From: Perna viridis
Taxonomy: Eukaryota
NCBI GenBank assembly: GCA_037379345.1
Contig: CM074515.1
Coordinates: 7,564,001 to 7,628,000, forward strand
DNA: 64,000 bases
Direction of reading: 5' to 3'
The notes under the pieces are model-generated. The model worked only from the letters and a program-made list of their open reading frames with translations, did no database searches and had not been told where the DNA came from. Below, in pieces: positions 10,501-44,600 of this stretch; the stretch's first letter is position 1, and every line of letters begins with the position of its first letter. The translations under genes and the position numbers were made by a program.

Positions 10501-13500
10501 TCTCCCTGTTACTGGTACACTTGTCAGGAGTAACATTCCGTAAAAAAAAGGGGTGAAATCAATATTTTCATTGAAGATCGAGATCAAAACAGTTTGAATC
10601 TTAGAATATGAATTTAATTTACTTTATGTAAAAAGATCAATATTACATGACAGAACATAATGAAGTAGTTCTATGTAATCTTCAAACAGCTTGGGTCATC
10701 GTTGATTTTTAAGCTATTTAAAACGCTGTAAGTGACTACAAGGGGCGTGTTTATTATATATTTTACGTGTAATAAATCAAATAAACTAATAATTGATGAA
10801 ATTGATTTTTGTGTCATGCCTCCTTTAACAATTTTTTTTTAATTTGTTTCATTTAAAATTCTGTGTTAGGAATATTTATCAGATTTAAAAGAGCTTTTAT
10901 TATCTTCAGTTTAAAGGAGGGCCTAGTGCACCACACCCTGAAAATCAACTTTTTATTATGCCCTCAGATATTTATCGATAGGGGTGTCTGTCCGTTCTTC
11001 CTTCCATCCTTCCTTCTAGAAACTGATATTGTGTCCACACTTGTCCCAAGTGAAGAGAGTTCAACTTGTTGTGGTTTTATCATGCTGTGCTTAGCAAAGC
11101 TTTTTATATTCAATGAGTTGTGGAACTTTAAGCAACATCAATAATGGAAAAACTGGTACATCATGTGCCTGAGTGCAAATATTAATTGCATTTATTACAC
11201 TGCCATATCGTGAATATTAATCATGAATTAAAATGAATCTATAGACATATTGCTGGTCAGATAGGAACAGCTTACTCCACAAACCAGTAAGAAAATAAAT
11301 GTTATATAATGTGATTGTACTTAAATTTACAGACCCAACCAAAACAACATTCTACAGACAATGTTGTGAATATACTGAAGGCACAACAGACTGCATTGGA
11401 GATTGTCACTAATATTTGCTGTGTAGATGGTATGTATTGCAATTTTTTTTTCTTCTTTAAACTTAAAACTGTTCCATTTAAACATCATCTAATTATTATT
11501 AATTTTATTTCGGTTTTACTGAAACAATCAATGTTATTATATACTTTATAATAGATCCTGCATCAATTTTTTTGTTAGAACAGTAACTCCATATCTAAAA
11601 TATGCATGATTCTGATTCTGTAATTATCATGATTGTGAATGATATGGATCTTTTAGTGACTTATTTAAATTGCTTCCTGATTGTTTGGATCCATAGAATA
11701 AACTAAGAATAAATGCTGAAAGAAACAATCCAATGAGTGTTGAATATATACTAGTAACATATTCCTGCAATAAAAGTGTTTTAATATCACAAGTAAATCA
11801 AAATATTAGGATGCTTTTCCCTTTATTTGTACATTTGGTTCAGTTTTGAAATGGTTAACTTCTTAAATTGTTAAGGTACTTCCTTTCTTGTTTATCAGTT
11901 TATTCTTGAGGTCATTGTTGTTTTTCATAGAGAATATACATATATTGTCAATTATAAAGTCATGGTGTGATCTCTGCTGTTTAACTATACCATGACAACA
12001 ACAAGAATTAGTACCTCAGAAACAATACCTACAACAACAAGAATTAGTAACTCAGAAACAATACCGTGACAACAACAAGAATTAGTAGCTCAGAAACAAT
12101 ACCTTGACAATAACAAGAATTAGTAACTCAGAAACAATACCTACAACAACAAGAATTAGTAGCTCAGAAACAATACCTACAACAACAAGAATTAGTAACT
12201 CGGAAACAATACCTACAACAACAAGAATTAGTAACTCAAAAACAATACCTACAACAACAAGAATTAGTAACTCAGAAACAATACCATGACAATAACAAGA
12301 ATTAGTAGCTCAGAAACAATACCATGACAACAACAAGAATTAGTAGCTCAGAAACAATACCATGACAACAACAAGAATAAGAAGCTCAGAAACAATACCT
12401 ACAACAACAAGAATTAGTAACTCAGAAACAATACCATGACAATAACAAGAATTAGTAGCTCAGAAACAATACCGTGACAACAACAAGAATTAGTAGCTCA
12501 GAAACAATACCATGACAACAACAAGAATTAGTAGCTCAGAAACAATACCATGACAACAACAAGAATTAGTAGCTCAGAAACAATACCTACAACAACAAGA
12601 ATTAGTAACTCGGAAACAATACCGTGACAACAACAAGAATTAGTAACTCAGAAACAATACCGTGACAACAACAAGAATTAGTAGCTCAGAAACAATACCG
12701 TGACAACAACAAGAATTAGTAGCTCAGAAACAATAACATGACAACAACAAGAATTAGTAACTCAGAAACAATACCTACAACAACAAGAATTAGTAACTCA
12801 GAAACAATACCTTGACATCAACAAGAATTAGTAACTCAGAAACAATACCATGACGATAATAAGAATTAGTAACTCAGAAACAATACCATGACAACAAGAA
12901 TTAGTACCTCAGAAACAATACCTACAACAACAAGAATTAGTAGCTCAGAAACAATACCATGACAACAACAAGAATTAGTAGCTCAGAAACAATACCGTGA
13001 CAACAACAAGAATTAGTAGCTCAGAAACAATACCTACAACAACAAGAATTAGTAACTCGGAAACAATACCGTGACAACAACAAGAATTAGTAACTCAGAA
13101 ACAATACCGTGACAACAACAAGAATTAGTAGCTCAGAAACAATACCGTGACAACAACAAGAATTAGTAGCTCAGAAACAATAACATGACAACAACAAGAA
13201 TTAGTAACTCAGAAACAATACCTACAACAACAAGAATTAGTAACTCAGAAACAATACCTTGACATCAACAAGAATTAGTAACTCAGAAACAATACCATGA
13301 CGATAATAAGAATTAGTAACTCAGAAACAATACCATGACAACAAGAATTAGTACCTCAGAAACAATACCTACAACAACAAGAATTAGTACCTCAGAAACA
13401 ATACCTACAACAACAAGAATTAGTAACTCAGAACAATACCATGACAACAACAAGAATTAGTAACTCAGAAACAATACCATGACAATAATAAGAATTAGTA

Positions 13501-22500: not shown

Positions 22501-25500
22501 TGATGAAGGTCCAGACATGTCATTGATCTTGTTCCTTGATGAAGGTCCAGACAAGTTGTTTGTCTTCTTCCTTGATGAAGGTCCAGACAATGTTATTTGT
22601 CTCCTTTCTTGATGAAGGTCCAGACATGTCATTGGTCTTGTTTATTGATGAAGATCCAGACATTTTATTTTGTCTTGTTTCTTGATGAAGGTCCAGACAT
22701 GTTATTTTGTCTTCTTTCTTGATGAAGGTCCAGACATATCATTGGTCTTGTTCCTTGAAGAAGGACCAGACATATTATTTGTCTTGTTCCTTGATGAAGG
22801 TCCAGACATGTTATTTGTCTTGTTCCTTGGTGAAGGTCCAGACATGTTATTTGTCGTATTCTTCTATGATGGTCCAGACATGTTATTGGTCTTATTCTGC
22901 GATGATGGTCCAGACATGTTATTTGCCTTGTTCCTTGATGATGGTCTTGTAACTAAGGCCCAGATGCATTAATGGTCTTGTGTTTTGACAAAGGTCTCGT
23001 TGCTTGACAAAGGTCCAGACATGTTATGGGTCTTGTTCCTCGATGAAGATCTTGCTTTTTGAATAAGTCCAGACAGGTTAATAATCTTGTTTGCTTTTAC
23101 CAGTATTAAGCTTAGAATATGAGAAGGAATGTTTTGTTAATGTTTATAAATCAGAATATCTGCTATGGCATGTTACAGAAACATGAAAACAGCTTTTGAC
23201 TAGGGATATTTATTTGAAAAGGAAAGATTTTTTGACAATGTTTATATCTTTATTTTGTGCATGCTTATTCCGAGTTATTTTCTGCATATTGCACATTGAA
23301 ACTTGTGTAAACCATATCCCTGTTGGTGGAGGGTTAGTTCAGATGTTTGGTTTACTGAGGCTCAAAATACATTAAAATTCAGAAAAAATTACTTCAGAAA
23401 ACAATGCTTGTCTTACGTATCATTAATCATTTGGCAGTATCTATGTAGACATTGGTTTTATTGATTTTTATCATGTATAAATATTTATGAGAAGAATCAA
23501 AATAAAAATATGAAATGTGATTCACCATCACGATTTAATGGTTGTTGACCTGTATAGTTGTTCCTGTTCAGAATACTTAAAGACTGTAACATTAATCAAA
23601 CAGGTGTCTAAAGACTTCCTGATACCATTTAAAACCAGTTTAGCCCTGATATAACAGCCCTTATCTGTGTATTTGCAAGTTAGGCTGTAGAGTGGTATTA
23701 TCATTTTATATTCACAGAAAAAACTTCGGCCAGGTAAGCAATTGCCATCACTTGGGGTCGTTCGTCGCCTGTCATCATCATTCGTCGTTGTCGTCGTTAA
23801 CAATTTTTCAAAACTCTTCTCCTCTGAAACTACTTGACCAATTTAAACCAAACTTGGTTTATCCTTGGGGTATCCTGCATAGATCCGATGTGGGGATATT
23901 TGATCCATTGAAAACATGGCCACCATTACTAAAAATAGAACATAGGGGTCAGACAGTAGTTTTTCGCATATATCTCCAAACCATTTGGTTTAGCTAAATT
24001 CTGACATGGGTGAAAGTGTTCAGCATGATGAGATCTGTCTGCTGTCAAATTTTCATTTTAATCCATTAAGCCATGTTGGAGTTGTTTCCCCTTTTCAACA
24101 TTTTTTTGCTATTCTTTCAAAAATCTTCTCTTCTGACACTACTTTACCAATTGAAACCAAACTTGGTATGAATGTTCCTTGGGGTATCCTGCAAAGAAGG
24201 CTACAAACCACTAATTCAGATTCCCATTACTCTCTTTGTTAATTTGCTCATTTTCAGGGAATCCTCAGTAGTTTACCTTAAGGTTAACCTAACCAAAACC
24301 ATATATCACCTGAAACATACACATGTACTGCTATGTCACTCAAAATTTCACAAAGGGGTTTACTTCCTTGCAGTGAAGCAGTGACACTGGGAACTCATCT
24401 ACCCTAAAAATAGCCTGGGGAATCCAAAAAATTCTTTATTTATAACATCTTTATTTATAGTTCCACCAAATTAGTTTATTTAAGTTTGAGGTGGCATACT
24501 TTGGGCTCAAAAGTATCAGAATAAAATTCCCTTTATGTAAAAAGTTCATTCATTTAAAAATATTTTCAACTTTTTTATAATGGCTTACTAAAGGGACTAC
24601 TTTGTACCTTGGCGTAGGACTTTTTTTTGTTCCAAATTGATCATGCAATTGATGGTCTGTGGCCAGAACTGATGTGGGGATAATTGATTTGTCGAAAAAC
24701 ATGGCCACCATTACTAAAAATATAACATAGGGGTCAAACAGTATTTTTTCGCATATATCTCCAAAACGGTAAGGTTTAGCTAAAGCCTGACTGGGTGAAA
24801 ATATTCAGCATGATGAGATCTATCTGCTGTCAAATTTTTATTTTAACCATCAAGCCATATTGGAGTTATTGTCCTTTTATCAATGTTTTTTGCAATTTTT
24901 AATGTTATTTCTTTCAAAAATCTTCTCTGACTACTTTACCAATTGAAACCAAACTTGGAACGAATGTTCCTAGGGGTATCCTGCATAGAACTGATTTCGG
25001 GATTTTCGATTCATCAAAAACATGGTTGCCATTACTAGAAATATAACATAGAGGTCAGGCAGTAGTTTTTTGCATATATCTCCAAAAACGTTATGTTTAG
25101 CCAAATTCTTTCAATAGTAGAAATGATCCTTATTTTTAGGACTACAAAAGTCTTCAGGCATTAAAGTTATCAGATGACTCCTTATAAGAGTTATTGCCCT
25201 TGAAAGGGGAAAATGACAGGTTTTGTTTTGTTTACAGTTTTCAGCTAATGTCTTAAACACCATGATAGATAGAAACTCATTTGCTGAAATGATCCTTATG
25301 ATAAGTCCTATCAAAGTTTGATTTGACAACTTCTTGTTTAATTTATTGCCCTTGAAAGGCAAAATTCAACCAGGTGAGCAATTCAGGCTCCTGGGAGCCT
25401 CTTGTTTTTATATAGCTGTGAATTACAGAAGACAGTGTAATTATGTAATTATCTGATTTCCCAACTCAACTATTTCACTAGCCAAAGAAGATAAGGTGTA

Positions 25501-26692
25501 CATTCAGATGTAAAATGATAAATGGTCACTCTCAGGGAACATGTTCAGTGTAGATCAGGTCATGTAGTAGATTACTATTGTTAAAATATAATTTAAAATC
25601 AAAGTAAACAGACAGTCAAATTTATTTTTTTTTATCTGACCTTCAAACTGAATTATTCAATTGCTATCAAAACCCTTTTTAAAGTTCAGTTTGTAGAACA
25701 TTAGAAGAGATTGGTAAAAAGTTCAGTTTTATACAGTATGCAAATACTGAATTATAATTTTAAAAAAATCATAATTTTGTTTTTGTTGTTGCTGTTTTAT
25801 TGGATAATTTTTTTTGTAAAAACTTAAAGTTCTGTACATCAAATTTTAATAATTTGTTTTGTGTAGTAGAATGTTGTCAGACCATACTAAACATGCTTTA
25901 TTCATTCTTTCCATGTGACAGGACAAATGCATAAAACAAGGAAGACAATGAGGTGAAAATATATAGACCTAATTAGGTCCTGAAGATCAAATAATGATAC
26001 CAGTCATTTAAGTGATGCAGCTGTTCAAATATACTTTCAAGAGTGGAAGGTTCAGGTCCTTTCAAAGCTTTAAATGAAGGGACACTGAAAGTCCATAATA
26101 AAGTGTCAGTGGAAAGGCTTGGAGGTCCAGGTCTTAGGGAAATAAAACTTAAAGGGTCTGAGGTCAGAAATTGAGGCTCCTGGACATCGCACCACTACGA
26201 TCTGAACCCTTGGTGATGATGCTTAAGCACTTAATTGGGGGTCACAACATGTAAGGGAAATAACTCTGTAAAAATCAGCAAAACATTTTATTATGTGATA
26301 ATTTGATAACAAAGTCAAAGTATCTTAGTGATCAAAAGTTTTGTTGACGAAGCTACTATGTTCATTAAAATTGTTCCCATGAAACATATGGTTAAAATTT
26401 CTTGAAATTTCTACATTTTGCTTTTTTTATCAAAGTAAAACACTGAATAAAATTTCAAGAAATTTAATCTAACCATATAAATTTTAGAGAAAATGGTAGT
26501 TACCCCTCTGAAGTCATAGTGTCATTTACATAATTCTTATTACTGGTTTTACAGTCATTAGAAAATATGAAACTTAGTATTTTTTTTCTCTTTCAGATTC
26601 AAGGTAAAAAGAAACTATTAGGAGAACATTACCCTGTGATATCCACAGCTCGTATAAACTTGATCAGATTTATAAAATACAAGTCAAAATGA
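1333..26692 (+). CDS. HEATR3: HEAT repeat-containing protein 3 (Syo1-like), 15 exons in window, 5' end upstream of window. Exons: 1333-1505, 2361-2448, 2797-2897, 4900-5009, 6252-6395, 6626-6786, 11333-11429, 13593-13678, 15590-15649, 16560-16636, 17271-17407, 17659-17744, 18122-18271, 20084-20257, 26597-26692
   Basis: All junctions are GT-AG with matching phases; the exons sum to 1740 nt (579 aa + stop). Motifs recognised from HEATR3: RECGCASLANIV, ALGAVRNITVDGG, LTPLVALF, LWNLCE, AQCLQTVTED, AQQTALEIVTNICC..DEWEEL, AESLDAMFDVFGED, ARINLIRFIKYK*. Confidence 0.9.
2361..2448 (+). CDS. HEATR3: HEATR3 exon (NITVDGG...ALFKK)
   Basis: ttgcag acceptor and aag|gt donor, phase-compatible. Confidence 0.85.
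2797..2897 (+). CDS. HEATR3: HEATR3 exon (FDIGWKPE...ILWNL)
   Basis: cacag acceptor and tg|gtaat donor. Confidence 0.8.
3901..4714. mobile_element. TTAA-flanked MITE (Kolobok-like AGG...CCT termini)
   Basis: TTAA|AGGAGAAGACCA ... TGGTCTTCCCCT|TTAA. Confidence 0.7.
4900..5009 (+). CDS. HEATR3: HEATR3 exon (EASEEAVKVFN...AITV)
   Basis: tacag acceptor and g|gtaag donor. Confidence 0.85.
6252..6395 (+). CDS. HEATR3: HEATR3 exon (QCLQTVTEDN...TLAV)
   Basis: ccag acceptor and g|gtaag donor. Confidence 0.85.
6626..6786 (+). CDS. HEATR3: HEATR3 exon (ILTNITDD...NSDQ)
   Basis: poly-T tag acceptor and cag|gtta donor. Confidence 0.8.
7738..10118 (-). mobile_element. Mutator-like DNA transposon (MULE), structurally full-length
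   Basis: ~33-bp TIRs (GGTTCATTCCACCTATTCCCACTTTTTA / reverse complement GGTGTCTTCCACCTATTCCCACTTTTTA) and perfect 8-bp TSD ATTATGAC at 7730-7737 and 10119-10126. Confidence 0.92.
8198..9602 (-). pseudogene. FLYWCH zinc-finger + MULE DDE transposase, disrupted
   Basis: N-terminal YWKC...CPA...HNH; core GEGTF, DYE, GCFF|HY, RTTNHLEG*H. Frameshift in the A-run at ~8750-8757 and TGA in place of Trp at 8453-8455; the frame continues to TAA at 8198. Confidence 0.88.
11333..11429 (+). CDS. HEATR3: HEATR3 exon (TQPK...AQQTALEIVTNICCVD)
   Basis: tacag acceptor and g|gtatg donor. Confidence 0.85.
11990..13553. repeat. Minisatellite with 36/38-bp units (CC[A/G]TGACAACAACAAGAATTAGTA[A/G/C]CTCAGAAACAATA), ~42 copies
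   Basis: Tandem units seen directly; no unique spacers. Confidence 0.97.
13593..13678 (+). CDS. HEATR3: HEATR3 acidic exon (EWEELDTSESSSDE...)
   Basis: ttag acceptor and tca|gtaag donor. Confidence 0.85.
15590..15649 (+). CDS. HEATR3: HEATR3 exon (PEDISKDLQNAITSNHVFTK)
   Basis: ttttag acceptor and aaa|gtgag donor, phase 0-0. Confidence 0.7.
16260..16500 (+). mobile_element. Degenerate tRNA-derived SINE with Meta/MESC-like central domain
   Basis: GGTCATACCAAAGACTTTAAAATTGGTAGCCACTGCTTCT...GATTGGTTTGCTCAGAGTCAGTATAAT resembles mollusc Meta-domain SINEs (from recall). Confidence 0.55.
16560..16636 (+). CDS. HEATR3: HEATR3 exon (VLQKIEP...IIK)
   Basis: ttcag acceptor and aa|gtaag donor. Confidence 0.75.
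17271..17407 (+). CDS. HEATR3: HEATR3 exon (FEQLQIYALLCCSNIV...LGG...SDT)
   Basis: gacag acceptor and g|gtgag donor. Confidence 0.85.
17659..17744 (+). CDS. HEATR3: HEATR3 exon (LLEAVTSCMRAVVQ)
   Basis: ttcag acceptor and aag|gtaac donor. Confidence 0.85.
18122..18271 (+). CDS. HEATR3: HEATR3 exon (LLDVTSQDL...PFLK)
   Basis: ccag acceptor and aag|gtac donor. Confidence 0.85.
18723..19809. mobile_element. Possible TA-flanked Tc1/mariner-type MITE containing a ~33-bp tandem repeat (18826-18955)
   Basis: TA|CAGTGAAA ... TTTCACTG|TA; subterminal ACCTGTCTAAACC repeats near the right end. Confidence 0.4.
20084..20257 (+). CDS. HEATR3: HEATR3 exon (DVGIFLL...AESLDAMFDVFGED...LKKQ)
   Basis: tacag acceptor and cag|gtaat donor. 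Confidence 0.9.
20517..20763. repeat. 41-bp tandem repeat, ~6 copies (TCTGTCCATCTGTCAAGCTTAGGGGTACATGCTTTGTGTAA)
   Basis: Seen directly. Confidence 0.92.
21105..23090. repeat. 36-bp minisatellite (GATGAAGGTCCAGACATGTCATTGATCTTGTTCCTT), ~55 copies
   Basis: Seen directly; explains the many repetitive ORFs on both strands. Confidence 0.97.
23728..25406 (+). mobile_element. Bivalve pearl/DTC84/HINE-like non-autonomous element with internal core repeats
   Basis: 5' CAGGTAAGC..CATCACTT..(GTC)n block, repeated GGGGTATCCTGCATAGA core, 3' CAGGTGAGCAATTCAGGCTCCTGGGAGCCTCTTG hairpin. Confidence 0.7.
24199..24664. mobile_element. TIR MITE with 4-bp TSD (AGAA) inserted in the pearl/HINE-like element
   Basis: AGAA|GGCTACAAACCA ... 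TGGTCTGTGGCC|AGAA; removing it restores the host core GCA.AGAACTGAT. Confidence 0.8.
26597..26692 (+). CDS. HEATR3: HEATR3 last coding exon (IQGKKK...NLIRFIKYKSK*)
   Basis: Long pyrimidine tract, ttcag acceptor and TGA at 26690-26692. Confidence 0.85.
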   Translation: MQGKKKLLGEHYPVISTARINLIRFIKYKSK

Positions 26693-27278
26693 TAGCTGAT
26701 TATAGTGCTTTACATCTACAATATTAATTTGACACATTAAATTTTACAGTTACCTTTGTTGTATGGTTTGTATAAAAATTATATTGTTAAGAGATCACTG
26801 TCAGATAATATCAACCACAAGAAACTTCAGTGATCATTGTAATATGTTCCTATTCTGTTATTTTATCTTTATTTTAACTGGGAAGAAATCAGCTAGCATG
26901 CATTTCAAGATAGGAACTAAATTCATTAGGGCCATTTATTTTCTAGGGGAGCATGGTTAAGGAATCAGTATTTTTCTTACTGTTTCCTACATGCCATCTA
27001 TTTATTTAAAACTGATTGGGAATATGATTTTTTTTATTATTTTCTATACAAGCAGTGTCGTAACCTTAAAGACCAAAATGTATTATTTTTATTTTTGATA
27101 AGAGCGGAAATGTTTATTTTTGGATTATTTTTTTTTGTGTATTTAAAAAACTGCCAAACCCCTTCAGAATCAAATCTTTCTAAATTCTCCATGGTGTGAT
27201 CCTATTGTCGTTTTCATTGGATCAGTTTGTTGAGAAATGTTTATCTTGATAGAATAGATAACAGATATTCTCATCAGA

Positions 27279-27284
27279 AATAAA
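27279..27284 (+). terminator. Candidate polyadenylation signal (AATAAA) of HEATR3
   Basis: AATAAA about 590 nt after the stop codon; motif only. Confidence 0.3.
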
Positions 27285-29841
27285 AAAAAACATTAGTTTA
27301 TATAATGTTACTCTTGAAATTTAAGTTACAATTTTGTTCCTGGTCATGAGTTTTACTTCTTGCTTGGTATTCATACAGTGTATCAATGGATTGCACATGC
27401 ACACTCCTATGTCTTTCTTTTAAACTAAATCCAGCTAGTTTTATAAAGCAGACAGCCTAGGTGTCCACTTTGTTCAGGCAACATCCAAGACTGTTTTGAG
27501 GTTATCCTTTACCTGTCCGAAAACAAGAACATAGTTTTATTATAGTTGTTTGTTGAGTAATCATCTATTGCATCAGAGTTATTTTTGGAGAACTGCTATA
27601 ATTTTTATATGAAGTTCATGATTATTATAATTAAGCATATTTAATAGTTATAGAGACTGACAGGTTATTAGGTACATCATATACATGTATATTGAAGGTA
27701 ATCACTTATCTTGTATTCTGGGTATGTACAAACAGATAGCTATGCCATATTTAATATTTACACGTGTGTGTTTTACAATTTTACAAAAAGTCGTTGGATA
27801 TACTTAAAGATTGAAAAATGTATTAAAAATCTTTTCTAGAATCTTTTTGGTTGGTATAAGTTCCTTCAAAGTTGACTACAAAGCAATGCTCTTATCAGAT
27901 CAATTTAACCAATGTTGACATAAGATACCCGACAGACAATTAATGAACAATACAGGTCCTGTTGTGGCTTCCTAGAACTTCTAAATGGATAACATTATTA
28001 TAAAGAGTCAAACAAAATTGGTAAACACCATCTATAGTGAACTTATCTCATGAGGTATTTTCATTTCTACCTTATCGCACAAGGGCCTTAGGTTTACATT
28101 ATTTAATGACATCGTCTATCTATTAAAAGGCCCATGGTGGCCAATACATTCAAATACAATGATTGTCATGATCAAGAAATACAATGGAGACAGATATCAA
28201 GTTCAAATAAGCCAACTAAAAGCCTGAAAAAAATCACAACAAACATATTGAGCGGCAGTACTCATATACAGTGATGATATACAGTTACAAGTATCATGTA
28301 ACTTAAAGGACTCAAAGACATTGGTAGCTCCATACTCTCGTTTGTCTTAAGCCAAATGAATTTTGATTGTTCATTTAATGTAGAGCATTTCAGCAACGTA
28401 TGGAATGAGATTTTATTGGCCTCGTATTACACAAAAATTTACAAGATGACCGAGGATGGCTGTTTCATTATTAGGGGCGGTTTCACGGTCCAAGGTATCA
28501 TTTGCTCACATTTGGACAAGAAGACAACAATTAGCGAAATTTTCAACATAAAGGTCCCAAACTTCGGTCGTCTACTTGACCCATCGCTTCCTTGTTTGAT
28601 GCTATATGATTATGTGCAGATGAAGCAAAAATAACTGATATAACCCTTCCTCAATTGAGATTTTCATCAAATTTTCATTTTCAACGGTCTATGGCCTTAT
28701 TTCCAGCACATCAGTTAATTCCACAGATGCAGAAAGCTGGTTTCCGTTAGTAATCTGCAATCTTTTCTGTTTTACTCACAAAATCTAGTCTTTTCTGTTT
28801 TATTCACAAAATCTGCATTCGTTTCTGTTTTACTCACAAAATATCTCTATGGTCAACCTTTGCATAGACCAATTTACTGAGCAATTTGTGCGGCAACGTC
28901 GACGTGTTTCGCTGGTTTGAAAACAAAACAAATTTTACCAATTAAATATCCTAAATGAGGTTTCTGTGAACAATTGTGTCGATTATATAGATCAAGCGTA
29001 AAACATGGCAGCCGTTGCTATTTTCAAACCTTTGGGTTTAAGTCGGTAAGAAACTAATATATTAGTGTACTGTATCACACAAAATCTTGTTTAAACTACG
29101 GTATTCTGAAAATATAGAAATAACGGGTGATATACAAGAAGTTCTGAAATTCTGAAAATTTCCCCTTTTACAATTTGACAATAATTGTAACCCCAAAAAG
29201 AAAATCGAAGCACCTGAATTGATTAGATATGTTTAATACATCATTATCTTAATTACGAATGCCTAAAATATGAGTTTTACGGTGTCGGTATGCTGTGAAT
29301 CAAAGGCCTGTTTTTATACCGAGACCAGTTTTCAAGGGGTTGGGATAATATTTTTAACATTTTTTGAAAATTAGTTTTTCCTGGTTTATTTATGTGTGAT
29401 ATTAAATTATCTATCGAATGATACCAAATCTGAGACGTTTTAGTGGAGCAATAGCTTGTAGAGTAGAATTGGTGACTTCTTACGGAAAAATCGAAAATCT
29501 CATTTTTCGCTTTTTTGGGTAAATTCTGACCCAGAAAAGCGCCAAAATTCATTAAAAGTACTCCAGAAGTATTAATTGTGATGATACTAAATGGAAAATA
29601 CCAAATAAGCCATTTTTACTGAAGCATACATACTCTAAGGGTTTTGACATGGAAAATTTTGTCAATTTAAGGGATTTTTCGGTAGGGTAGAGCACATATT
29701 TTTTCATTCGTAAATGGGAGGTATAAGGGGACCTGAGGAATTTTTATCCAAGAAAAAAGGTGACCGCTTTACCAAAATATGTTGTTTATGGAGCCAGGTG
29801 AGCAATTCAGGCTTCTGGAATTCTCTAGTTTTTCTTCGTAT

Positions 29842-30434
29842 TTTAGGTCACCTTGCTAAATGCCAGGTGAGCTAATGCCATCACTTAGCGTCAGTCGTCG
29901 TCGTCCGTCATCGTCGTTAACAAATTTTCAGAACTCTTCTCGTCAAACACTACTTGACTAATTGGAACCAAACTTGGTATAAATGTTCCTTGGGGTACTA
30001 GTATCCTGCATAGAACTGACGTGGGGAATTTTGATCCGTCAAACAACATGGCTGCTGTTACTAAAAATAGAACATAGAGGTCAGACAGTAGTTTTTCGCA
30101 TATTATATCTCTCAAACCGTTAGGTTTAGCCAAACTCTTTCAATTAATGAAATGATCCTTATTATAAGGCCTACTAAAGTCTCCGATGGATCAAGTTTTC
30201 AGACGACTCCTTGTAAGAGTTATTACGATTGGAAGGTGAAAAATTACGTATTTTTACATTTTTCAGCCAATATATTGAAACTATGATAGAAAGAAACTTT
30301 CAATTGCTGAAATGATCCTTATGACAAGTCCTACCACAGTCAAAATTGTTGGACAACTCCTTGTTCAATTATTTCCCTTGAAAGGCAAAGTTTAACCAGG
30401 TGAGCAATTCAGGCTCCTGGAAGCCACTTGTTTT
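29842..30434 (+). mobile_element. Second pearl/DTC84/HINE-like copy (single core unit); another 3' end of the family lies just upstream at ~29794-29830
   Basis: TTAGGTCACC...CAGGTGAGC, (GTC)n, and 3' CAGGTGAGCAATTCAGGCTCCTGGAAGCC; colinear with 23728-25406. Confidence 0.75.
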
Positions 30435-32380
30435 CCGACGCAGTCGGTGTAGTTACGCTTTTAACCCTTTGACCTTTAAGACGTACTTCTATGGAAACGC
30501 AAGTCACCTGATCTCAATTCTGTTTCCCGATTGGCCGAATACTGAAAACTGTATCGAAGATTGAAATTGTGTGCCATGTGTTATTTTCTTGAATGAAATT
30601 TAGAAAATTTTATGTAAAAAGAAAAAAGAATTAACTGCGTCGGCTATCTATTTTAGAGATAGTACTTGTTTCTTTTCTCTTTTTTTGTTTTTGTTTTTTT
30701 AGTGGGGGGGGGGGGCTTGTTGAGTGTGTATTACAAATTCTGGGCCATTTATCATATTTTTGTATCGATTTTTTATTTTAATGATACTCCTATAGGTGTC
30801 GAAATTGGCTGTGTAGTTTAAACTACATACTATGTGCATGTAGTCATTAGTGATTTGATAATCACGTGACGGTAAACAATTTTTTTTCAAATGTAAGAGG
30901 TGATTTCAAACCCCCTTAGGAGTGCGAGTGTTCTTTGTTGCTCCTAATGATATTCATGTAAAGCCATGCTATTTGTCAGGTATACCTAGGGTCACCTAGG
31001 TTAGTTGTCCCGCAATTTCATTCATTGAATGGTTCATTCATATAAACCTTTATAGTAGAATCCTGAAACCAATGTCAAAGATAAGCGCCCACAATGTCAT
31101 ATGTCTGGGTTCCGAACAATCCCACTGTAGACTTTCCCACACAGTGTAGCCTAATATAGAAAACTCGTTTGTATGCGATTTTTGTATGTGCTTCTTTTGA
31201 TAGATTTTTATCGTACATTTCTAATATTACTTTAACTTTTTATTCATTCCATCAAGGAGCATGTAACCTCGACAGAAAGACACAAATCCCGGATTCAAAT
31301 TTCCGTTTTCCCCAAAATAAGCCCTGCATTCTTTTTGCATCATCATCATTAGCACTAAGAGCAAACACAAAGAGAGGGATATAAAACAACCGCTAAAATG
31401 TCTGAAATGAGATAGGTTGAAAGAAAAAATGGGGGGAAAAATCATCAAAAATTTATTTCATAATTTTGTTTATAACGGTTCAAAGGTTTTATGGACATTC
31501 TATGATAATACATTGCCATTTAGCCTATATATTGCTTCTTGTGTGGTTGTGAAAACACAAGGTTACCTGACGGACAAGTTAGAGACCCACCAAAGTTTCA
31601 TAAGAGTTTCATTGTTTGTGAATGGATATCACACATATACCTAAGCTTATACGACTTTTATCTTCAAGGAATGCTACGGAGACAAAATTGTCTTTATTTG
31701 TAGCAACACAGAAACGCTTCTCAATATACAGTATGCTCGGTAAGGACATAAACTGATATAGGACATCAGGTCAAGTTTTTCCCTTTTTTATGTGTATATT
31801 ATACAACGTGACACAGATTACAAGACGCTTAGTACCTTAAACCTCATGTAGATGAACAAGGGGATTCTTTCATCGTTGCATCGTATCATTTGAAATACAC
31901 AGAACTTTCTTGAAAACTAGGTTTAAATACCAACAGTTATCATATACATGTACATATATTCAATAAAATTAAGTCAAAATTGTGGTCATTGTTTAAAAAA
32001 ACGCACAATATCTTGTAGCGAAAATGCTTTGGCGTTTTATTTCATAAGTAGCATTTTCGTCTTTAACCATTTTATTAAATATAATGTATAACCGCTAAAA
32101 TTAAAAGCTCGAATAAAACACAATGAGCCGAACTAAATAGCAAATAACAAATAATTAGTAATAAAAAAAAATCTTAAGCCGTAAATCCAGTGGCTCAAGG
32201 GGTGCGACGGTTTGAACCCCCTTTTCTTTGAGATTTTGTCAGTTTCGTGCATTAGGTGCAAAACATGATAATGACAGCTTTTTAGCCCCGTTTCCAAAAC
32301 GCCTGGATATGAGCCAGATATCTTCCATAGTGGAATCAAATAGAGAGAGAGAAAAAAAAACAATTCGTCGTACTGTAGAA

Positions 32381-32510
32381 TGACGTGCGATGTTTACAGC
32401 CCTCATTGGTTGGACAGAATCCGACCTGTATATGGACACCAATATCTTATCTACTTGACTATTCAAATATTCAAGACCTTTGTATAAATGGACAACTAGG
32501 CTATAAGAAC
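32381..32510 (+). promoter_or_regulatory. Candidate core promoter of gene 2 exon 1a
   Basis: TGACGT (CRE-like) at 32381, ATTGG (CCAAT) at ~32406, and TATAAA at ~32484, about 60 nt before ATG 32544. Confidence 0.45.
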
Positions 32511-32543
32511 CGCTATTCTATTTCGTCATTTAATCAATTCATC

Positions 32544-32628
32544 ATGCGCGAAACCATTTTAGTGGTTTTATGCGCTATTGTAGGAATAAATGTCGTCGAT
32601 GGAGCTGCAACTACAGCAACGCCGTCAA
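32544..32628 (+). CDS. Signal-peptide exon 1a ([28 protein letters not shown])
   Basis: ATC-ATG start context, hydrophobic core, phase-1 a|gtaag donor. Confidence 0.75.
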
Positions 32629-35600
32629 GTAAGTTATACATGTGTGATTCTGATAAGTATAACATTAGTTAATTAGTTGGTCAAATAATCTCTTTGATCT
32701 AAAATGGATTATTTCTTATACGTATTTGCATTAATAAGACAACGATGAAAAGTTTCAAAACTATATGAAAAGCAAGTTTAAAAAAAATGAAGTGTAGCAA
32801 ATGTATAGCCTTCGTTTAAAATGTATCCTTTTTATGCAGTAATTGTTTTATAGAGCTTCGACGGCTTCAGTATCTACTAAAAATACCATCAATATGCTTA
32901 TGTCTAGTACCATAGAGAAATGAGTACATTTTATAGTATAGATGAAATCCCTCGTAAGGAATATCATTGAAATCAACAGATTCTCATATGATCATGATCA
33001 GGTTTTGGTTGTATTGGCTTTATGTTCCTATATTTTGTCTGTTGTTATTTAAACATTTACATAGTGTCTATTATGTCTACATAAATCACATCTTATATTT
33101 CAATGAAGTGCTTTCTCCTTACTGTCATTATTATCTTTTTAATTTTAATTTTTTTTTGTTTTTGTTTTGTTTTTGTTTTTGTTTTTTGTTTTTTTGTTTT
33201 GTTTGTTTTTTTGTTTTTGACACCTTACTGGTAACATTCCATACATAGCTTTTAATCACTGAGACTCGCTCTTTTTTGTCGCATTTCGTGTTTATCATAT
33301 ATTATGTTACTCAGGTCCAAATGTACGTAATGCTAGTAATATGTACCTTTATAAGAACATTATATAGACAATATTACTAAGTATTAAACAAGAAAAACGG
33401 ATTGGTTTTAGTGTATCACACTGATATGAATAATTTTAACATAAACATGTCATTTACAATTTACTTAAATCAAAGAAAGTTTGAAATAGCAAAACGAGAA
33501 TACCTAGTTCAAGGTGATGCACCTAAAGTGCAGTTCTTGTCAGATCTCCATTCATATTTGTCTATCTAGGTTATCATATTATTTTGAACCATAGGTTTTG
33601 ATAAGGAGTCAAATGTAAAGGCAATTGCAGGTGCATACAATCATTAGATATCTATGATTATGCATGAGACAGTGGCGTTACTGGTGGTGTTAGGTCTAAA
33701 TGTGGCCTATGCCGCAGTGACCCAACCACCTATTAGTAAGTCGTTAATTTTCGTGATAACGAGAGTATTTTTGGTTGGCTTTTTGTCTTATAATCCGTTT
33801 TAAATTTGGTGGTAACTAATTATATATTACTTTCCGTTTTAAGGTTGTGGAACAAACCCAGCAGATATTCACTTTCTATTGGACTCCTCGGGTAGTGTAG
33901 GCTCGTCAAACTTTGAGAAACAGAAAGACTTTGTTGCAAGATTTGCTCAGTCATTTTCAATTGGACCTAAAAATGTTCAAATTGGTGTAACGACATTTTC
34001 AACGACAACTCATCCGCAGTTTTATATGAAAGCTCATCCGACACAGTCATCGTTAGTGTCGGCAATAAAAGCTATACCATATCAAACTGGTAACACACAT
34101 ACTGACGAGGCTCTGAAATGGGTCGACCAGCATGCCTTTACGTCAACAGCGGGTGACCGCTCTGGTGTTACCAACATATTAATTGTGATGACTGACGGAC
34201 AATCTGGCAACCCGCCTCAAACCGCCATCGAAGCTAAGAAGATTCATGGCCACAACGTTAAGGTGTTTGCAATTGGTATTGGAAATGGAATTAAACAAAC
34301 AGAGCTAGACGCAATTGCATCTGACCATGCACATACTTTTACTGTACAGAATTTCGATGCGTTGAACACACTACAAGCCGAGCTGAAGAAGACTGCATGT
34401 AAAGGTAAATATACCGTATTGTGACCATTGATGACGCAGTAAGATTGTTATACTGATTTACATACTGACAGGAGCTATTATTTCTGTTTTGTAACAAGCT
34501 TTGTGATTGGATGGTTCTCTTTGAGCAAACTAAGTTATTTTGTATACATTGTATGTAACTTACTTTTGGTATTGTGACGTCATTAATATCGATTAGTCTG
34601 CACTCCGCGATTCAAATAATCCGAAACAAAGTAACGTTTTGAATCCATGAGAAATTATAAGGAATATTTCTAATTTTTGAACATGTTATACCAAATAACA
34701 TGCTTTCGGTCATTTTGAGTTTACAGTTGTATTCATCGCTTCGCGGTTCACAAGGGCAAACTTCCACAAACCATGTTATTTCGTATATCATGTTAAAAAA
34801 TAGAAGTATTCCTTTAAATAATTATACTTTTGTACTCAAAAAATTTGCTGTAAGTTATTTTTACTTTACTTATATCTATATTACTTTTTTATAGGCGGAT
34901 CCAAAGGGATGTGTTGTCCGGGCGCCTTTATGAAATTGATTTTTCAAATATTATAAATTAATCTTTAAGTTAAAACACTGAAACTAATTTAGAAATCAAT
35001 GTACAGTCAAGCAAATTCATCATTTAGCGATGTATTACAAAAATAAGTGAATATGATGCACATTTTCTTCCGCATTCATGCAAAATTTTGACCCGGGTTG
35101 GACTTCCTTGTTATTCTGTGATTCTGCCGTTGTTGTTTTATTTTTTGTCCGTTCATTTATGTAGAACAAATACTAAATGACAATAATACGATATGATACA
35201 ACAACAAGAAATATGTGTACATAATTTTTTAAGGTTGTTTTATTAAGTAAATAGTATTTCTGCATCATAGCTTTATCAGAATACATTTAACACAACTGAA
35301 TTAAGACTATTTCCATTACGGATTTCCGTTGAGAAATATTAAAATAAAATTTGTCGCATTATCGTTTTTCTATCTTGATCTTTGTTGATATACGTGCATA
35401 CTTTGGTGCTTGATAGTCCAGACTAAGGGTTAAATTGCAGCCTTTGTGACATGAAATTCTAAAAATGGGAAACGCACTGATAAGATTTATTATTTTCCAA
35501 CGATTCATTGACAACATTATGTTCCAGTCACGTGCGGTTTAGATCATACGTGTATTTTATTGAAATCCATACTACGCGGGGTGGAAGGTAAATTGGAGTT

Positions 35601-38600
35601 TTATTCTTGTCTCTTCGGTCAACAATAAAACTCAGGTTCACACCGTGTCTTCAGTAATGATTTTTTTCACGCATTTTTACGTATCATCGTTATGAAGAAA
35701 AAAACTCACTTATTAAGCGATGAAGTATTTATTGGAACGAATAAAACTTATACATGTGAAGAAATACAGTGACTCTGAAACTGTCATCTCACCATGTAAA
35801 TAATATCCCTAAACAAAACGAACCCTTTTTGAGGTTGTATTATTTAATTGATATGCAGTTTTCTTTTGCGTTTGTTTTTTATTTGTTATATTTCGTTACT
35901 CTTGATATTTCTTTTCATAGTATCAAAATGAACATGTATGGTCTTTAAATACGTACAGTTTAGTTAATTAAATCACTGACACTAGATATGACCTAGTACA
36001 AACAAAAGCTACGGGTGTATGTATACGTAGCCTAGAACATTCATTTTGGTAACAAAAAGGTCTATTGGGTCGAGTTGGAAAAATGCTGACATACATATAA
36101 TTGATTACTCATGCTTTTGCTCATGTTAATATAACGAATCATTACTTACGCGCACTTATGTATAAAATCGTCTTGTTCGTTGTACAGAGGGATGGATTAT
36201 TCACCGTCCCCTTTGGCATGCCACTCTGCAGAATAACAGAAATATTTCAGTGATTACTATCTGTCCTTAGAACATTTCTACTGTCATTCTTTCTTAAACC
36301 AAACATTTAACTGAGCCAACCCAAATAGTTGATACTTATTGCATTTTTATACCAGTTAGCCTGTACTTACAACAAACAAATAAGGAAAGCCATATTGAAA
36401 GTAAACTGTTTTTAAATCTTCTGTTTTTCAATAGTAACATGATTACATGTACTGTAATCAATAACCATACTTAAAGGGAAGAATTTACATGTAACATAAT
36501 CATAATAAGAATTTTCTTTTTCTTTCTCTCTATACTTGAAGGCAAAATAATAGTTTTTTTTCATTTTTAGTAGGTTGTAAAAAATATATGAATTTAAGAT
36601 GTTTCCGAATTTTTTTTCCATTCGGTACTAAAACAATCTTAATTTTACTTGCTATGTTTTTACATCATTTTTTTCGTATTTAAAAAATATATTGATGTGA
36701 ACAATGTTTACTTCTAGTCGATGGGGGCTGGAGTACTTATGGAAGTTGGAGTAAATGCAGCACGACCTGTGGTGGTGGAACACATCATAGAGACAGAACC
36801 TGCACCAACCCAAAACCTGCTAATGGTGGTAAGACGTGCAGTGGAGCAGCAAGAGAGACACAACCTTGTAATACTCAGGCATGTCCGACTCTCCCACCCC
36901 CTACCACTACAGTACCACCACCACCAACCACCACCGAGAAAGGTGAGTACCCTATGTAATATTTCGATATATCCGACTCTTCCACCTTACCACTACTGTA
37001 CCAACACCACCGACCACCATGAACAATAGTTAGTATCCTATGTAATATTTTGGCATGTCAGATTCTTCCACCCCTACCACTTCTGTACTACACTCCTTAA
37101 GACGTTTAAGTTTCCCGCACGCACGATACCCAAACGCACGCTAAACGCTCACCAAACGCACGATAAACGAACGCTTCTATCGTGCATTTAAACGAACGCT
37201 CCTAACGTGCGTTTAAACGCACGATAGACCAAAGCTTATATCGTGCGGTTAAATGCACGATACACGAACGACGAAAAAATGATAATATTGACATATAATG
37301 AAGACAGAAAAAATAGAAAATAAAATTTATGAAATTATATAAATTGATAATAGCAAAAAATATATAAATAACAGTTAAAGCAAGGAAATAATCAAAGTAC
37401 AAAAATAAACGAACGCTTCTATCATGCGTTTAAACGAAAGCTCCTAGCGCGCGTTTAAACGAACGCTTCTATTGTGCGTTTATCGTGCATTTAACGATGT
37501 GTAAACGCACGATAAACGATGCACGAACGCTTAAATGGGAAACGTGAACGTCTCAAGGAGTGTACCACTACCGACCACTAGTAAGGAAGGTTAGTATCTA
37601 ATGTATAATATTTTGGCATATCTAACTCTTCCACTTCCACCATTACTGTACTACCACCACCGACCATCACTAACGAAGGTTAGTACCTCATGTAATGTTT
37701 ATCGTACGTTTACACATCATTTTGCGTTCGTTTAAACGCACGATAAACGCACGATAGAAGCGTTTGTTTAAAGACACGCTGGTAGCGTTTGCTGTCACAC
37801 TTACCACTTCCGAGTCAAATGGCCACTCCTGCGTAGTACTAAAAACACATTGACTCTAGATCTATGCATTGTAAGTGCATAATATTTGTGCATGCAGATC
37901 AAACTAAAGCTGAGAATGTGTACCTTAAAATCACATTTGTAATTGACTACAAAGGTGAATGATTATTGTTTATATGTGTGAGTAATTTACCTCCGTGCGG
38001 TGAGTTAGCAGAAAAGGTAAAACGGTTAATTTTCAGGATTATTTATTCAAGAAATTTTTGTGAAGAATTTCTACAATTATCGTACCATTAGCATAATGAT
38101 TTTGAAAGCCTTATTTTCCAAGGTTCGCAATGGTGTGCAACATTAAGATGTTATTTGACCAGGGAATTCACAGTGAAACCTTAAAAATTACCTTTTTAAC
38201 ATGTAAAGTAATGGAAACGTTAAAAGTGGTTAGTGAGACCATAGGAGGCTGCCATAGGAGCGTTCAATTAAGGTGGTAGATCTTTGGTAAGGGACACAAT
38301 TCTTACGATTTGAACGTTTGTATTCAGCATTTTACACCAATTTCGTGTAAGCATCAAAGTGGACTGATTTCATTCGGTTTTAAATTGAAAGCTTGATAGG
38401 CGGCGATGAAATTTAATATGATCCAAACATATCACTGATTTAAAGAGTTATGTCCCTTACCCTAGGTCTACCTCCTTAAATGCATGATAGAAGCGTTCGA
38501 TTATCGTGCGTTTGGTGAGCGTTTAGCGTGCGTTTAGGTACCTTGCGTGCGGGAAACCTAAACGTCCAAGTAGTGTAACAAAGTAACTCTCAATTTTGGA

Positions 38601-41600
38601 AATTAATCTTTGATATCAAAATTTGAACAGAATGAAATTATAGCTTGATCATTCAACGCATAATTACCAAATACCCTGTCAGTTGCACACTACTGCATGT
38701 AGATTATTTATATTTTTGTACCAAAACTTTTGATCCCAAACTTGTAATTTGATACGTTATATTTGGCAGTTATATGATAATTTCAGGTTGTGGTCTTGTT
38801 CCTGCTGATATTCATTTCCTGTTAGATGCCTCTGGAAGTGTAGGTTCATCAAACTACCAGAAACAAAAGGACTTCGTTGCCAGATTCGCACAATCATTCA
38901 CAATTGGCCCACAGAACGTACAAATTGGTGTAACCACTTTCTCATCGCAAGTTCATAATCAGTTCTACATGAACCAGTATCATGCCAAGCCCGCATTGGT
39001 CAGTGCTATTAAGGGTATGCCGTACCAGTCTGGTGGTACAAACACTGATACAGCTTTGAAATTTGTAGACGGAAACGCTTTCACTAAACCGCACGGCGAC
39101 AGAGATCATGTGGTCAACATTCTGATTGTCATGACCGACGGACAGTCTGCCCATCCGCCTCAGACTGCTGCAGAAGCTGCTAAACTTCACGGCCACAATG
39201 TCAAAGTGTTTGCCATCGGTATTGGTAATGGTATCAAACGAGCTGAGTTGGAGAAAATAGCAACAGACCCACAACATGTTTTTACAGTTCAGAATTTCGA
39301 CGCATTGAACACACTACAAGCAGAATTGAAAAAGACTGCTTGCAAAGGTAATAATCCGAGTTAATTGGGTTTTAGCTCACAAAGATCAGGTGAGTTGTCA
39401 CCACATGATTTTGGAAATGTTTTGTCAAATGATTTCTAGCATTGTTTTACCTTGAGTAGTGAAACTACCGAATTACCAGTTCTTGGTTAATCCAGAGACT
39501 TTATATTACAGGGACTGGCCACTGTTGAGAAAGTCTATATAATGTATAAAAATAACTGTGCCTCCTTGGTCTTTATACTTTATACTTGGTAAACTTAATG
39601 CCTTTACGATTTACATTTGTTTTCGCATACTGTGGGAAAGAAAATTATTTAGGATTTTAGTTATAAGTTAAAATTGACAATTGGTAATGACAAAGCTAAT
39701 CTGTAAAAATCATTCATTACTTGAATTTATCAGTAATTACTCTAGAGAAAAAAAATGAATTTGGTCAGCTTCTGTTAGTTAAGTATTATGTAATAGCGAG
39801 CACCGCGAAGCGGTGTGAACTCTACGGTTATTACGTGTACTTTCTAAATTCCCTTAAGGTTCCCCAGTATACTAACGAAAAAAAAGTCATGTCCCGGAAG
39901 TAACAAAAAGCGACTGTCCCTACGGAAAAAAATTCATCATTTCCTTCATTACTTGAGATGAAGGATACTACAGACACTGTGAAGTCAGCCTCATATCTTG
40001 ACCTATACTTAGAAATCGATGGTAAAGGAAAACTATTGACCAAACTTTACGACAAACGTGATGACTTTTCATTCAGCATTGTCAACTTTCCTTTCATCTG
40101 TTGCAACATCTCTTTGGCTCCTGCGTATGGAGTGTTCATATCACAACTCATACGTTATGCCACAGCTTGCCGAAACTACGCAGACTTTTTGTATTGCGCT
40201 AGAACTCTAACAAATAGGCTTCTGGAACAGGATTATGTTGCTACAAGATTGAAGTCATCACTACAGAAGTTTTATGGTCGTTATCATGAACTCGTGGATC
40301 GTTATGGTGTATCCATCAGCACCATGAAAACTGATTTATTCAACGGGTCATAATTTTCCTTCCCTCGTTTGTCTACCCCGGACTTGACTTTTTATGAGCG
40401 GGTGTTTCTAGAAAAGCAGAGGACGCTTACCCTACCGGTGCACCTGGTCCATGCTCCCAGTTTTTAGTTGTTACTTTGTATGTATGATTTTAGTTACTTT
40501 ATGTTCTTTGTTGTGTATGTCCGTGGAGAACTGTAATATTTCAGGTATCTGTATAGATTGACCTGACAGGCCAAAACTGAAATGGATGTTGCTAGAGATG
40601 CCCTTAAGGGATAAAAAAATCAAAATATTGCGAAGCGCTATAAAGTTATTGCCCATTTTTAGAGCGAGGGGAAGGGGGTATGGGGTTGGAATTTTTTTTC
40701 TTTGGGGGGATTGTTTAAGTTATTCATTTATTGATATAAAACTCCCCAATTAATTAAATAGACAGATTTTCAAATAGAAATATTTATTTTGCTTGCTGCT
40801 TAAATATAAATACTTGAGATGCAAAAAAATTCATTCTGGTCGACCCCCTCTTTGTAATGTCCTTTCTTATTTTTACGAGTCTCGCTCAGACGGTACATGC
40901 ACGGTAAAGCTCACGATTCTCGCTGATTCAGGCAATGCCTACCCCATATTAAAAATTATATCATTTTAAAGAAGTTTCTATACTCTGTTAATTGGATTGG
41001 TAGTAGATAAATATGTTTAAACAAATGGAAAGATCAATGATCAACAGCTTACTAGGGTATAGTTTGAAAATGAAAATTTTGATATTTCTTTCTCAAGACA
41101 TAGGTACATTCACTTAGTCATCATTTTATTGTTATTCAAAGCACATTAAAAAATGGCCATTGTCATTCAGCAGATTTTTCTCTTTAATTTGATATTAACC
41201 TAATTTTGATAATTGCAATACTTTTCACAAACACTCATTGACAAAGCACACTTTATGACCTTTAAAAAAGTAAATGTTTTTGCTTATTTGTCTGAAAAGA
41301 CTTAATTTTGAACTTAAAAATAATTACATTCCTTTTGTTTTAGATAAATAATAAATACGTGTTGCCATTTTCTAATCATTTATCTTTAATTTGGTTCATC
41401 ACTCATCAAAATCAATCCAGTGGTTTTTATAAACACCCTTAGCAAAGTAACCATAATTTCAACAGAGAAATTTGACTAATATACAGTCAAATAACAATGG
41501 CAGTGTACTGTATAGATTATTACAAGTGACTTCTATCTCTAACATACACTCACTGGTTAGTCTGATACTGTAAAGGTTGAACACAGTGAAAAGTTTACTC

Positions 41601-44600
41601 AATACAATAAATGAATAATATCTTATATTATGCAATTTTCATTGTTATAATTTTCAAAGGAGATAATTTCTCTAGACATGCCAAATCTTGTGGATTTTTT
41701 TACTTATTTGCAAAAGTAGAACAGGAGTAATCATGACAGATTCAGATTCTTTATTGGTTGTAAACTTTTACAGTTCCTCACCATAAGTTGTGATTATAAT
41801 GTATTCATAGCATATGACAAAGATATAATTATGTCTAATGCTAATCGTTAACAATATGTCAAAAAATATTTCTCTCTGACACAAACAGACCATTTAGAAA
41901 TAACTTTGTTTAAATGTTTCTTATGTATTCTGCCTAGAACTAATGATGCCCTTATTTCGATGTTTTTCGCTATTTTTAATATTATTTATTGTAAAAATCT
42001 TCTCCGTAACTACTAGACCAATTAGAACCAACTTGGTTTTGTTGTTTCTTAAGGTATTCTCCTTAAAACAGGAAAAACTTAGCCGCCGTTACTAAAAAAT
42101 ACCAGATAGGTGTCAACCAGCAGTTTTTTCGCATTTATCTTCTAAACCGTTAGGTTTAACCAAATTTTGGCATGTGCATAAAAGTGTTCAGCATAATGAG
42201 AACACTGTGCTCAAATTTTCGTGTAAACCGTTAAGTCATGTTCGAGGTGTTGCCCTTTTATTAACGTTTATTTGTTATGACGAACAAATCTTCTACAAAG
42301 AAACTACTCGACAGAATACAATGAAAGTTGATATGGTTGTTTCTTAGATGTGAGTAATTTTTCCAAGTAACACACATGGCCGTTTTAACAAAAATCAGAA
42401 TGTGGCTTATCAAGACAGGTGACGATTCAAACTCTTTGGATCCTCTAGTTATCCTAAATTTTGCCTTATTTTGTACCAATCAGTTAAGCAGGAACAAAAG
42501 TTGACTATCTTAACTTTATTTTCAGTTGATGGAGGTTGGAGCAAATATGGATCATTCAGTCCATGTTCTAAATCTTGTGGTGGAGGAACTCACTTTAGGG
42601 AAAGGACGTGTTCAAACCCACCCCCTGCAAACGGAGGAAAGAACTGTGTAGGCTCAGGCAGAGATACACAGGCCTGTAATACCCAGCCATGCCCAACTCT
42701 GCCACCCCCAACTACCCCACCACCAACTACAATGATTCCAACAACTCATGTACCAGGTAAGTGACTCACATGAAAGGACGGCGGTAATTACATAAATGCC
42801 TGCTCAACTGAATTTCATGATTAAATTGTGTTTTGTACTTAGTTGCACAATGCCTGACAGCACAAAAATAGTTTGAAATGGAGAATAGGTTTGACCATAA
42901 ACATACAACTGTTCTATCTGACTAGAATTGTATTTACTATATAGTTAGGATACACAGAAAAAAAGTGATGTTACTATATCAATTAAGGATTGATAGAGTT
43001 TTCTATCGAACAATCACTAAATTAAAGTCTTTAATTTTAAGGTTGTATTGCACCAGCTGATATTGTATTCATTCTGGATTCCTCTGGAAGCGTCGGTTTA
43101 CCAAACTTTAACAAAATGTTGGATTTTGTAAAGCAGATGTCACAAGGATTTGACATAGCATCTAACGGTACACATATTGGTGTCGTTACCTTCAGTTCAA
43201 AACCCCATTTAGAGTTCCACTTGAACAAATTCAACAGCAAGAGTGCAGTAAATCAGGGCGTTTCTAATATCCATTACATCTCTGGTGGTACCAATACTGC
43301 TGATGCAATCAAATATGCCCGTCAGACAAGCTTCCTTGCAGCTAATGGTGCTAGGAGTGGTGCTTCAAAGATTGCTATAATTGTAACTGATGGAAAATCT
43401 CAGTCACCTCCTGCCACTGCTGCCGAGGCTCAAAAGATGAGAGACCAAGGAATCACTGTCTTTTCCATTGGTGTCGGAACTGGACCAAATAAACCAGAAC
43501 TTGACGCCATGGCAACCGATCCTGATAATCAACATGTTTTCGTCGTCAGCAACTTTGACGCTCTTAAACAAATCAAAGGCGAATTGCAAAAGAAAGCTTG
43601 TGATGGTATGACATTATTATAGTGTTATTATAATTATAAATTCTAACAATTTGGTATGTCTTATTCTCCAATACTTATATCATTCGTTCTTTAAAAACTG
43701 TTACAAGTGAATAAAATATGCTCATGCGGTTAAATATATATATTTGTATTATCTTTTAATTTGTTATTTTGTCTCCCACTACATACTTAAAACAAAATGT
43801 CCTGCCAAACAAACTTGTTACAAAAATTTGTAACTCATGATATATTCATTTTATTATTTTCAGTCAAAGTTACTCAACCTCCACCACCAAAGAGTAAGTT
43901 AATTTAATAGCTTCAAACATAGTATAGTGAGTATTTAAGAACTAGATATGTGCTATATCTGAAAAAGGATTGTAGGGACATGGAAAACTAGTTAATTGTA
44001 ATTAGAGGTAAGTGTGACACGGACGTTGAAATGTTTTTAACATATATATGTACATCAATAATAAAAGTTGCAAAGGTTTTTTTTTTAAATTGAAGTACGG
44101 TTACTGGCGCATCTCTTTCAGTAGTGATGTAATTCATGTGCCTTTTAATTTAGAATGTTACACCCCCCCCCAGAATTTGTTTATTTTTTAAATATTAGGT
44201 TTTTGAAAATTGCTTTGTAGATTGCGGTGCCAAGGCAGATATTGTTTTCCTGTTGGACTCATCTGGAAGTGTCGGAAATAAAGATTTCCAGAAGATGTTG
44301 ACCTTTGTTGAGGGTGTAGCTGACAAGTTTACCATTGGTCCAAATGACATCCAGATTGGTGTAGATACATTCCAGAGTAGTGTTAAATCTGAATTTAACA
44401 TGAATCGATACACGGATAAGAATGCACTCAAGAAAGCCATCACCAGCATTGCTTATCACACTGGAGGAACAAACACTGGACCTGCTATCAAATTCATGAC
44501 AACGAACAGTTTCAATGCTTCAGCTGGTTAGTACAAAGTCTCTCCTATCTATTTCGTACTATCTGTCTGTCTGTCTGTCTGTCTGTCTTCTTTATCTGCT

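Follow-up and report, generated by a model that had tools for sequence, protein, structure and literature searches.

In the IgLON genes Lsamp, Ntm, and Opcml, twin promoters 1a and 1b precede alternative signal peptides, promoter-specific expression has been measured, and the processed N-termini are described as identical; the accessible part of that report reads the role of the arrangement as regulatory (PMC5288359). Among human tandem duplicated exon substitutions, most of which are ancient, 40 of 236 events are N-terminal, according to the excerpted text of the respective survey (PMC9741552). Drosophila hydra, as presented in the available portion of its description, is a young gene with nine duplicated first exons, many near copies, and a DINE-1 link (PMC1904467).

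The gene considered here begins within a window of 64,000 nt from the mussel Perna viridis (contig CM074515.1, positions 7,564,001 to 7,628,000, forward strand), and it can be set against these systems as far as the excerpts describe them. As in the IgLON genes, two 5' coding exons with alternative signal-peptide-like sequences, each having an ATG and a same-phase donor, are each spliced to the same downstream exon at the start of a common body; unlike the IgLON products, the two Perna proteins are predicted to differ by about 8-9 residues, and one of the exons is common to the gene and a neighbouring paralogue. As in the human events, the exons are N-terminal, mutually exclusive, and homologous, the homology being modest here, whereas the human events are mostly ancient and exon 1b looks lineage-restricted. 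With hydra the locus shares first-exon duplication leading to alternative starts, beside a duplication of the locus; in contrast, the Perna gene is ancient, its two exons are strongly diverged, and no transposon link was seen. We consider it probable that 1a and 1b serve as alternative first coding exons before the same VWA exon, each with a likely promoter of its own and a likely cleaved signal peptide, and that they give rise to nearly the same secreted protein.

The coding part of exon 1a (32544..32628, plus strand; 85 nt, ATG at 32544) and that of exon 1b (33654..33735, plus strand; 82 nt, ATG at 33654 and a second in-frame ATG at 33660) both encode signal-peptide-like sequences and end in a phase-1 GTAAG donor. 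Both are in frame with the common exon 2 encoding the first VWA domain (VWA1, 33844..34404, plus strand; Pfam PF00092, E 2e-46; covered by contigs), whose acceptor AG ends at 33843; the coordinates, peptides, and splice compatibility given in the preliminary description are thus right. The intron after exon 1b (33736..33843, plus strand), across which contigs join, has 108 nt, exactly as in the paralogue. Joining 1a to the AGs between 33400 and 33735 produced a stop in 18 of the 21 tested, including the AG at 33630, for which a stop had been claimed; the three open AGs (33672, 33693, and 33717) all lie within the coding part of 1b and have weak pyrimidine tracts. Within 26000-33843, exons 1a and 1b were the only hits of a scan for hydrophobic ATG-to-GTRAG phase-1 exons. 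Such exons seldom arise by chance: when the 7.8 kb before exon 2 was simulated with a Markov model, one appeared in 3 of 400 cases and two in none of 400.

For this locus 24 runs are listed, and eight were examined: five as contigs (X1, X2, X4, X8, and X18, each from a different study) and three as raw reads (X21-X23). None of the five contig runs is recorded as RNA and four were guessed to be RNA, the library type being absent from the record of X18; an RNA origin is likely, because the contigs join at exact GT..AG ends. Both junctions that the preliminary description had proposed to look for are present: 33735>33844 in four of the five contig runs (X1, X2, X4, and X8; four studies), and 32628>33844, also GT..AG, in the remaining one (X18). 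What these junctions show is a pair of alternative first coding exons that lead into one body. The X18 contig (345 nt) joins 32345-32628 to 33844-33904 (284 + 61 nt) with 0 mismatches and skips all of 1b. The first 16 nt of exon 2 contain seven differences from the paralogue, and since this contig agrees there with the window, 1a is joined to the window's own exon 2 and not to that of the paralogue. A contig of 4,438 nt from X1 starts at 33620 and connects 1b, VWA1, TSP1, and VWA2, and the 1b contig of X2 begins at 33603; because both cross the AG at 33630 unspliced and without additional 5' letters, 1b behaves as a first exon. The skipping of 1b in X18, the stops in most of the alternative joins, and this unspliced passage bear out the earlier proposal that 1a and 1b are not used in series.

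Two other routes for 1a were examined and rejected. A processed copy of 1a elsewhere was sought by a DNA search of the 723-Mb genome, which matched only the locus itself. Direct splicing of 1a to the second VWA exon is allowed by phase and would restore the layout of the orthologues; no loose end at 32628 was seen in four runs.

No single run contains both junctions, exon 1a being uncovered in X1, X2, X4, and X8 and exon 1b in X18. We rejected such run-exclusive cover as proof of a switch, since real 5' ends drop out of contigs: X18 and X2 contain VWA variants of the paralogue (22 of 22 listed differences agree with it) while its 5' end was not seen joined, which indicates that true 5' ends get lost. 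Contigs of this kind give neither start sites nor levels nor proof of absence. A rough apportioning of contig depth was discarded, as it hinges on assumed values. The raw-read RNA runs X21-X23 (one study; 19-25% of each read) have zero depth over 1a, 1b, and VWA1 and have no bearing on exon choice.

The unequal recovery of the junctions, four runs to one, would suit an arrangement in which 1b serves as the working first exon throughout, with 1a a minor or decaying ancestral exon of little regulatory weight, or in which both are used in the same cells with no switch; the duplicated first exons of hydra left tissue specificity unchanged, according to the available text of that study (PMC1904467). 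We regard this arrangement as unlikely, since 1a keeps an intact frame, a donor, and the orthologue-type motif, which argues for selection, and since its junction survived contig simplification in X18. The two junctions come from different studies, so genotype could in principle replace regulation as the cause, with haplotypes lacking 1a or 1b, or with promoter variants, explaining the run differences; presence/absence variation is described for Mytilus genes in the accessible part of one paper (PMC10138031). This account appears very improbable to us, as both exons stand in cis on a single 51-Mb contig of the assembly and two runs contain 0.96 of the words of 32450-34420, although these runs may be source data of the assembly and so not independent of it. 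Against our preferred reading, alternative first exons with separate promoters, it must be said that the 1a junction comes from one contig of one run.

That 1a and 1b are paralogous, as had been suggested, is probably correct, with modest support. Their peptides align with a score of 33, a value matched by 1 of 5000 shuffles and exceeding all scores of 1b against 95 other signal-like N-termini (maximum 28.5); at the DNA level the similarity has z 5.9, with the ATG and donor anchors included. A caution is that signal peptides are alike in composition anyway. The comparison makes it likely that 1b descended from a 1a-type exon. In a heuristic analysis, the hydrophobic cores of 1a and 1b peak at 3.7 and 3.2, respectively, with a small-residue site at position 20 in both, and by the small-residue rule cleavage is predicted after residue 20 in both peptides. 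Instead of the essentially identical mature protein expected beforehand, the two forms are predicted to differ by about 8-9 residues at their mature N-termini.

The relation of the two exons to other molluscs was examined with a profile built from 13 orthologue first exons, excluding isoform duplicates, models without a normal N-terminus, Aplysia, Lingula, Argonauta, and unnamed fragments. Exon 1a scored 24.2 bits and ranked 2 among the 97 scored sequences, behind a Dreissena relative, whereas 1b scored 2.1 bits (rank 32 of 97); 1a resembles the orthologous first exons of oyster, scallop, clam, and snail, and 1b does not. Because the profile fits 1a and not 1b, 1a is, on this comparison, the ancestral exon and 1b the derived one; that the exons are not equal twins is a new finding. 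Among the isoforms read, a non-exhaustive set, each species had one N-terminus (Ruditapes, two isoforms; Mercenaria, three; Lingula, two). Exon 1b, absent from the named orthologue proteins compared, looks lineage-restricted; among the matches listed (82; the best 120 of 281; 42) there is no named Mytilus orthologue, so that 1b is not dated.

The large gene has, in Pfam order, VWA, TSP1, VWA, TSP1, VWA, and one further VWA domain, followed by ShK-like exons and a weak VWC match below the cut-off, the scan having taken in 10 of its exon ORFs; its probable end is near 7637900 on CM074515.1. Exon 3 (36718..36942, plus strand) encodes the first TSP1 domain (Pfam PF00090) and is joined in X1, and exon 4 (38787..39347, plus strand) encodes VWA2, an older duplicate of VWA1 with 75% amino acid identity. 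The VWA-TSP1 unit is doubled within 33844-42764, synonymous sites between VWA1 and VWA2 being saturated. Homologues of 1,700-2,600 amino acids with the same layout occur in oysters, scallops, clams, abalones, Aplysia, and Batillaria, named relatives being Magallana gigas LOC105329078 (XP_011428534), Mizuhopecten LOC110457477, Ruditapes LOC132753729, and Aplysia LOC101848762. The Perna gene resembles these mollusc VWA-TSP1-VWA-ShK-VWC proteins in domain order, in the first VWA domain (58-70% identity), and in having a 1a-type first exon, and differs from them by its two VWA-TSP1 units and its second first exon. Most full-length orthologues have one VWA-TSP1 unit, the exceptions being Potamilus with two TSP1 domains and Lingula with three; Potamilus may have a similar doubling.

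Upstream of the large gene lies a HEATR3-like gene, which one oyster model shows fused to the orthologue, and this shared neighbour supports orthology. The HEATR3/SYO1-like gene occupies 1285-20266 on the plus strand, the neighbour order being the same in the oyster gene model. One of its introns contains transposase-like reading frames in pieces (8198-9611, minus strand), which we take to be of the MULE type, and a long tandem repeat, both strands of which contain open frames, extends over 21150-22970. Domain order, first-exon motif, and the HEATR3-like neighbour together place the gene in the mollusc LOC105329078-type orthogroup; on the domain tree its domains lie outside the oyster, scallop, and clam clades. 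From its domains, the large protein may have a secreted matrix or adhesion role. Our literature search found no paper on the first exons or function of this gene, which supplements may list. A Babylonia protein annotated as LOC101848762 is listed in the part seen of a proteomics paper (PMC5908917), and the portion available of a limpet paper (PMC7333891) held nothing relevant. A TSP1 search of representatives returned only generic repeat proteins.

The 5' leader of exon 1a, as delimited by the spliced X18 contig, extends over 32345..32543 (plus strand) and holds four upstream ATGs, which counts against the main reading. The TATA-, CCAAT-, and CRE-like motifs reported before this exon are all present (TGACGT at 32381, ATTGG at 32405, CCAAT at 32439, and TATAAA at 32483, with TATAAA and CCAAT each occurring about once per kb in the window), but all lie downstream of the contig start at 32345, which likewise weighs against the main reading. 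Because every motif falls inside the contig, some 1a molecules start further upstream; the motifs may yet form the main promoter. The 5' leader of exon 1b (33603..33653, plus strand) is defined by spliced contigs (from 33603 in X2 and from 33620 in X1) that run unspliced through the AG at 33630. Upstream of 1b lies a cluster of three WGATAR motifs (33562..33606, plus strand), a candidate promoter element. The motifs stand at -92, -83, and -55 of 1b and are kept at -90, -81, and -54 of the 1b-like exon of the neighbouring paralogue. Triple WGATAR clusters number three in the window and one in the next 40 kb, the simulated expectation being 0.8 per 64 kb. The possibility that the element is a repeat was discarded, as a pattern built from these two copies has only two exact copies in the genome. 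The 1b region had no other DNA match in a genome search that was insensitive, missing the paralogue too. A GATA motif may stand in for a TATA box; our literature search found no paper on GATA in place of TATA. We infer that 1a and 1b likely have separate promoters. The GATA cluster alone does not track with the runs showing the 1b junction, since the paralogue, which has the same cluster, yields contigs both in X18, the run with the 1a junction, and in X2, X4, and X8, runs with the 1b junction.

This small transcribed paralogue (CM074515.1 7639834-7644042, minus strand) consists of a 1b-like signal exon, a VWA exon, and two ShK-like exons, and lies about 46 kb downstream on the opposite strand, running from 7643952 downwards; contigs from X18, X4, and X8 show its splicing. 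Its first exon has 82 nt, as in 1b, and is followed by the 108-nt intron. No simple small-residue cleavage site was found in its signal peptide, and there is no 1a-like exon within 40 kb around it. Ungapped, 51 of 82 nt are identical between its first exon and 1b (z 12.5), and the similarity continues in the 150 nt upstream (z 7.2) and in the intron (z 4.5), whereas the upstream region of 1a matches neither that of 1b nor that of the paralogue (z 1.2 and -0.8). The VWA exon is 89-90% identical to VWA1 (90% in DNA; dN 0.06, dS 0.29), and on the tree the two are sisters (100/99), the paralogue having the longer branch (0.088 versus 0.03). Unnamed relatives exist for both the VWA1-type and the VWA2-type domains, so the VWA1/VWA2 duplication is older. 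Differences between VWA1 (33844-34404) and the paralogue cluster towards the two ends of the exon (7 within the first 16 nt and 8 within the last 23), the core being about 92% identical. Gene conversion between them is possible (p 0.07), but the signal is non-significant and is not claimed. One interspersed repeat with copies at 39950-40524, 52222-52499, 57529-57761, and 60120-60734 of the window has a further copy about 430 bp before the first exon of the paralogue. Further ShK-like and VWC-like exons past the probable end of the large gene (CM074515.1 7656245-7661450, plus strand, and 7666909-7667064, minus strand) suggest that additional partial paralogues are clustered there.

Exon 1b resembles the first exon of the neighbour far more than it resembles 1a (peptide scores 53 and 33; DNA z 12.5 and 5.9), as would be expected if 1b had arisen in the small VWA-ShK gene, from which promoter, signal exon, and VWA sequence had then entered intron 1 of the ancient gene by copying or gene conversion. 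Divergence is also lower in the VWA exons (at 14 of 77 four-fold sites) than in the introns (28 of 90), which at p 0.07 hints at later exchange. We judge this promoter capture rather improbable, because the neighbour's VWA is nested in the VWA1 lineage, of which other data sets contain unnamed relatives, and sits on the longer branch, and the conversion signal is non-significant; it would change the origin of 1b alone and leave the alternative use of the first exons untouched.

According to the preferred reading, a 1a-type exon would have been duplicated and one copy would have diverged to 1b, with the GATA-rich element upstream of 1b providing a second regulatory input; the block of 1b and VWA1 was then most likely copied in inverted orientation, giving the small VWA-ShK-ShK neighbour. 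The consequence is likely to lie in regulation; only about 8-9 residues would differ at the predicted mature N-terminus. A bolder version, in which the ancient matrix gene captured a GATA-driven promoter and signal exon from its inverted daughter, and in which a tissue or stage switch between the ancestral and the captured start would allow co-regulation of the large protein and the small VWA-ShK protein, strikes us as distinctly doubtful.

The alternative first-exon arrangement as such is already well known. As an invertebrate example this locus is clean: its ancestral first exon can be distinguished from the derived one, and the derived promoter-exon block is common to a daughter gene. The analysis yields a corrected gene model for an uncharacterised protein found across the molluscs and provides a testable model for the way in which secreted-protein genes may acquire a second regulatory input.
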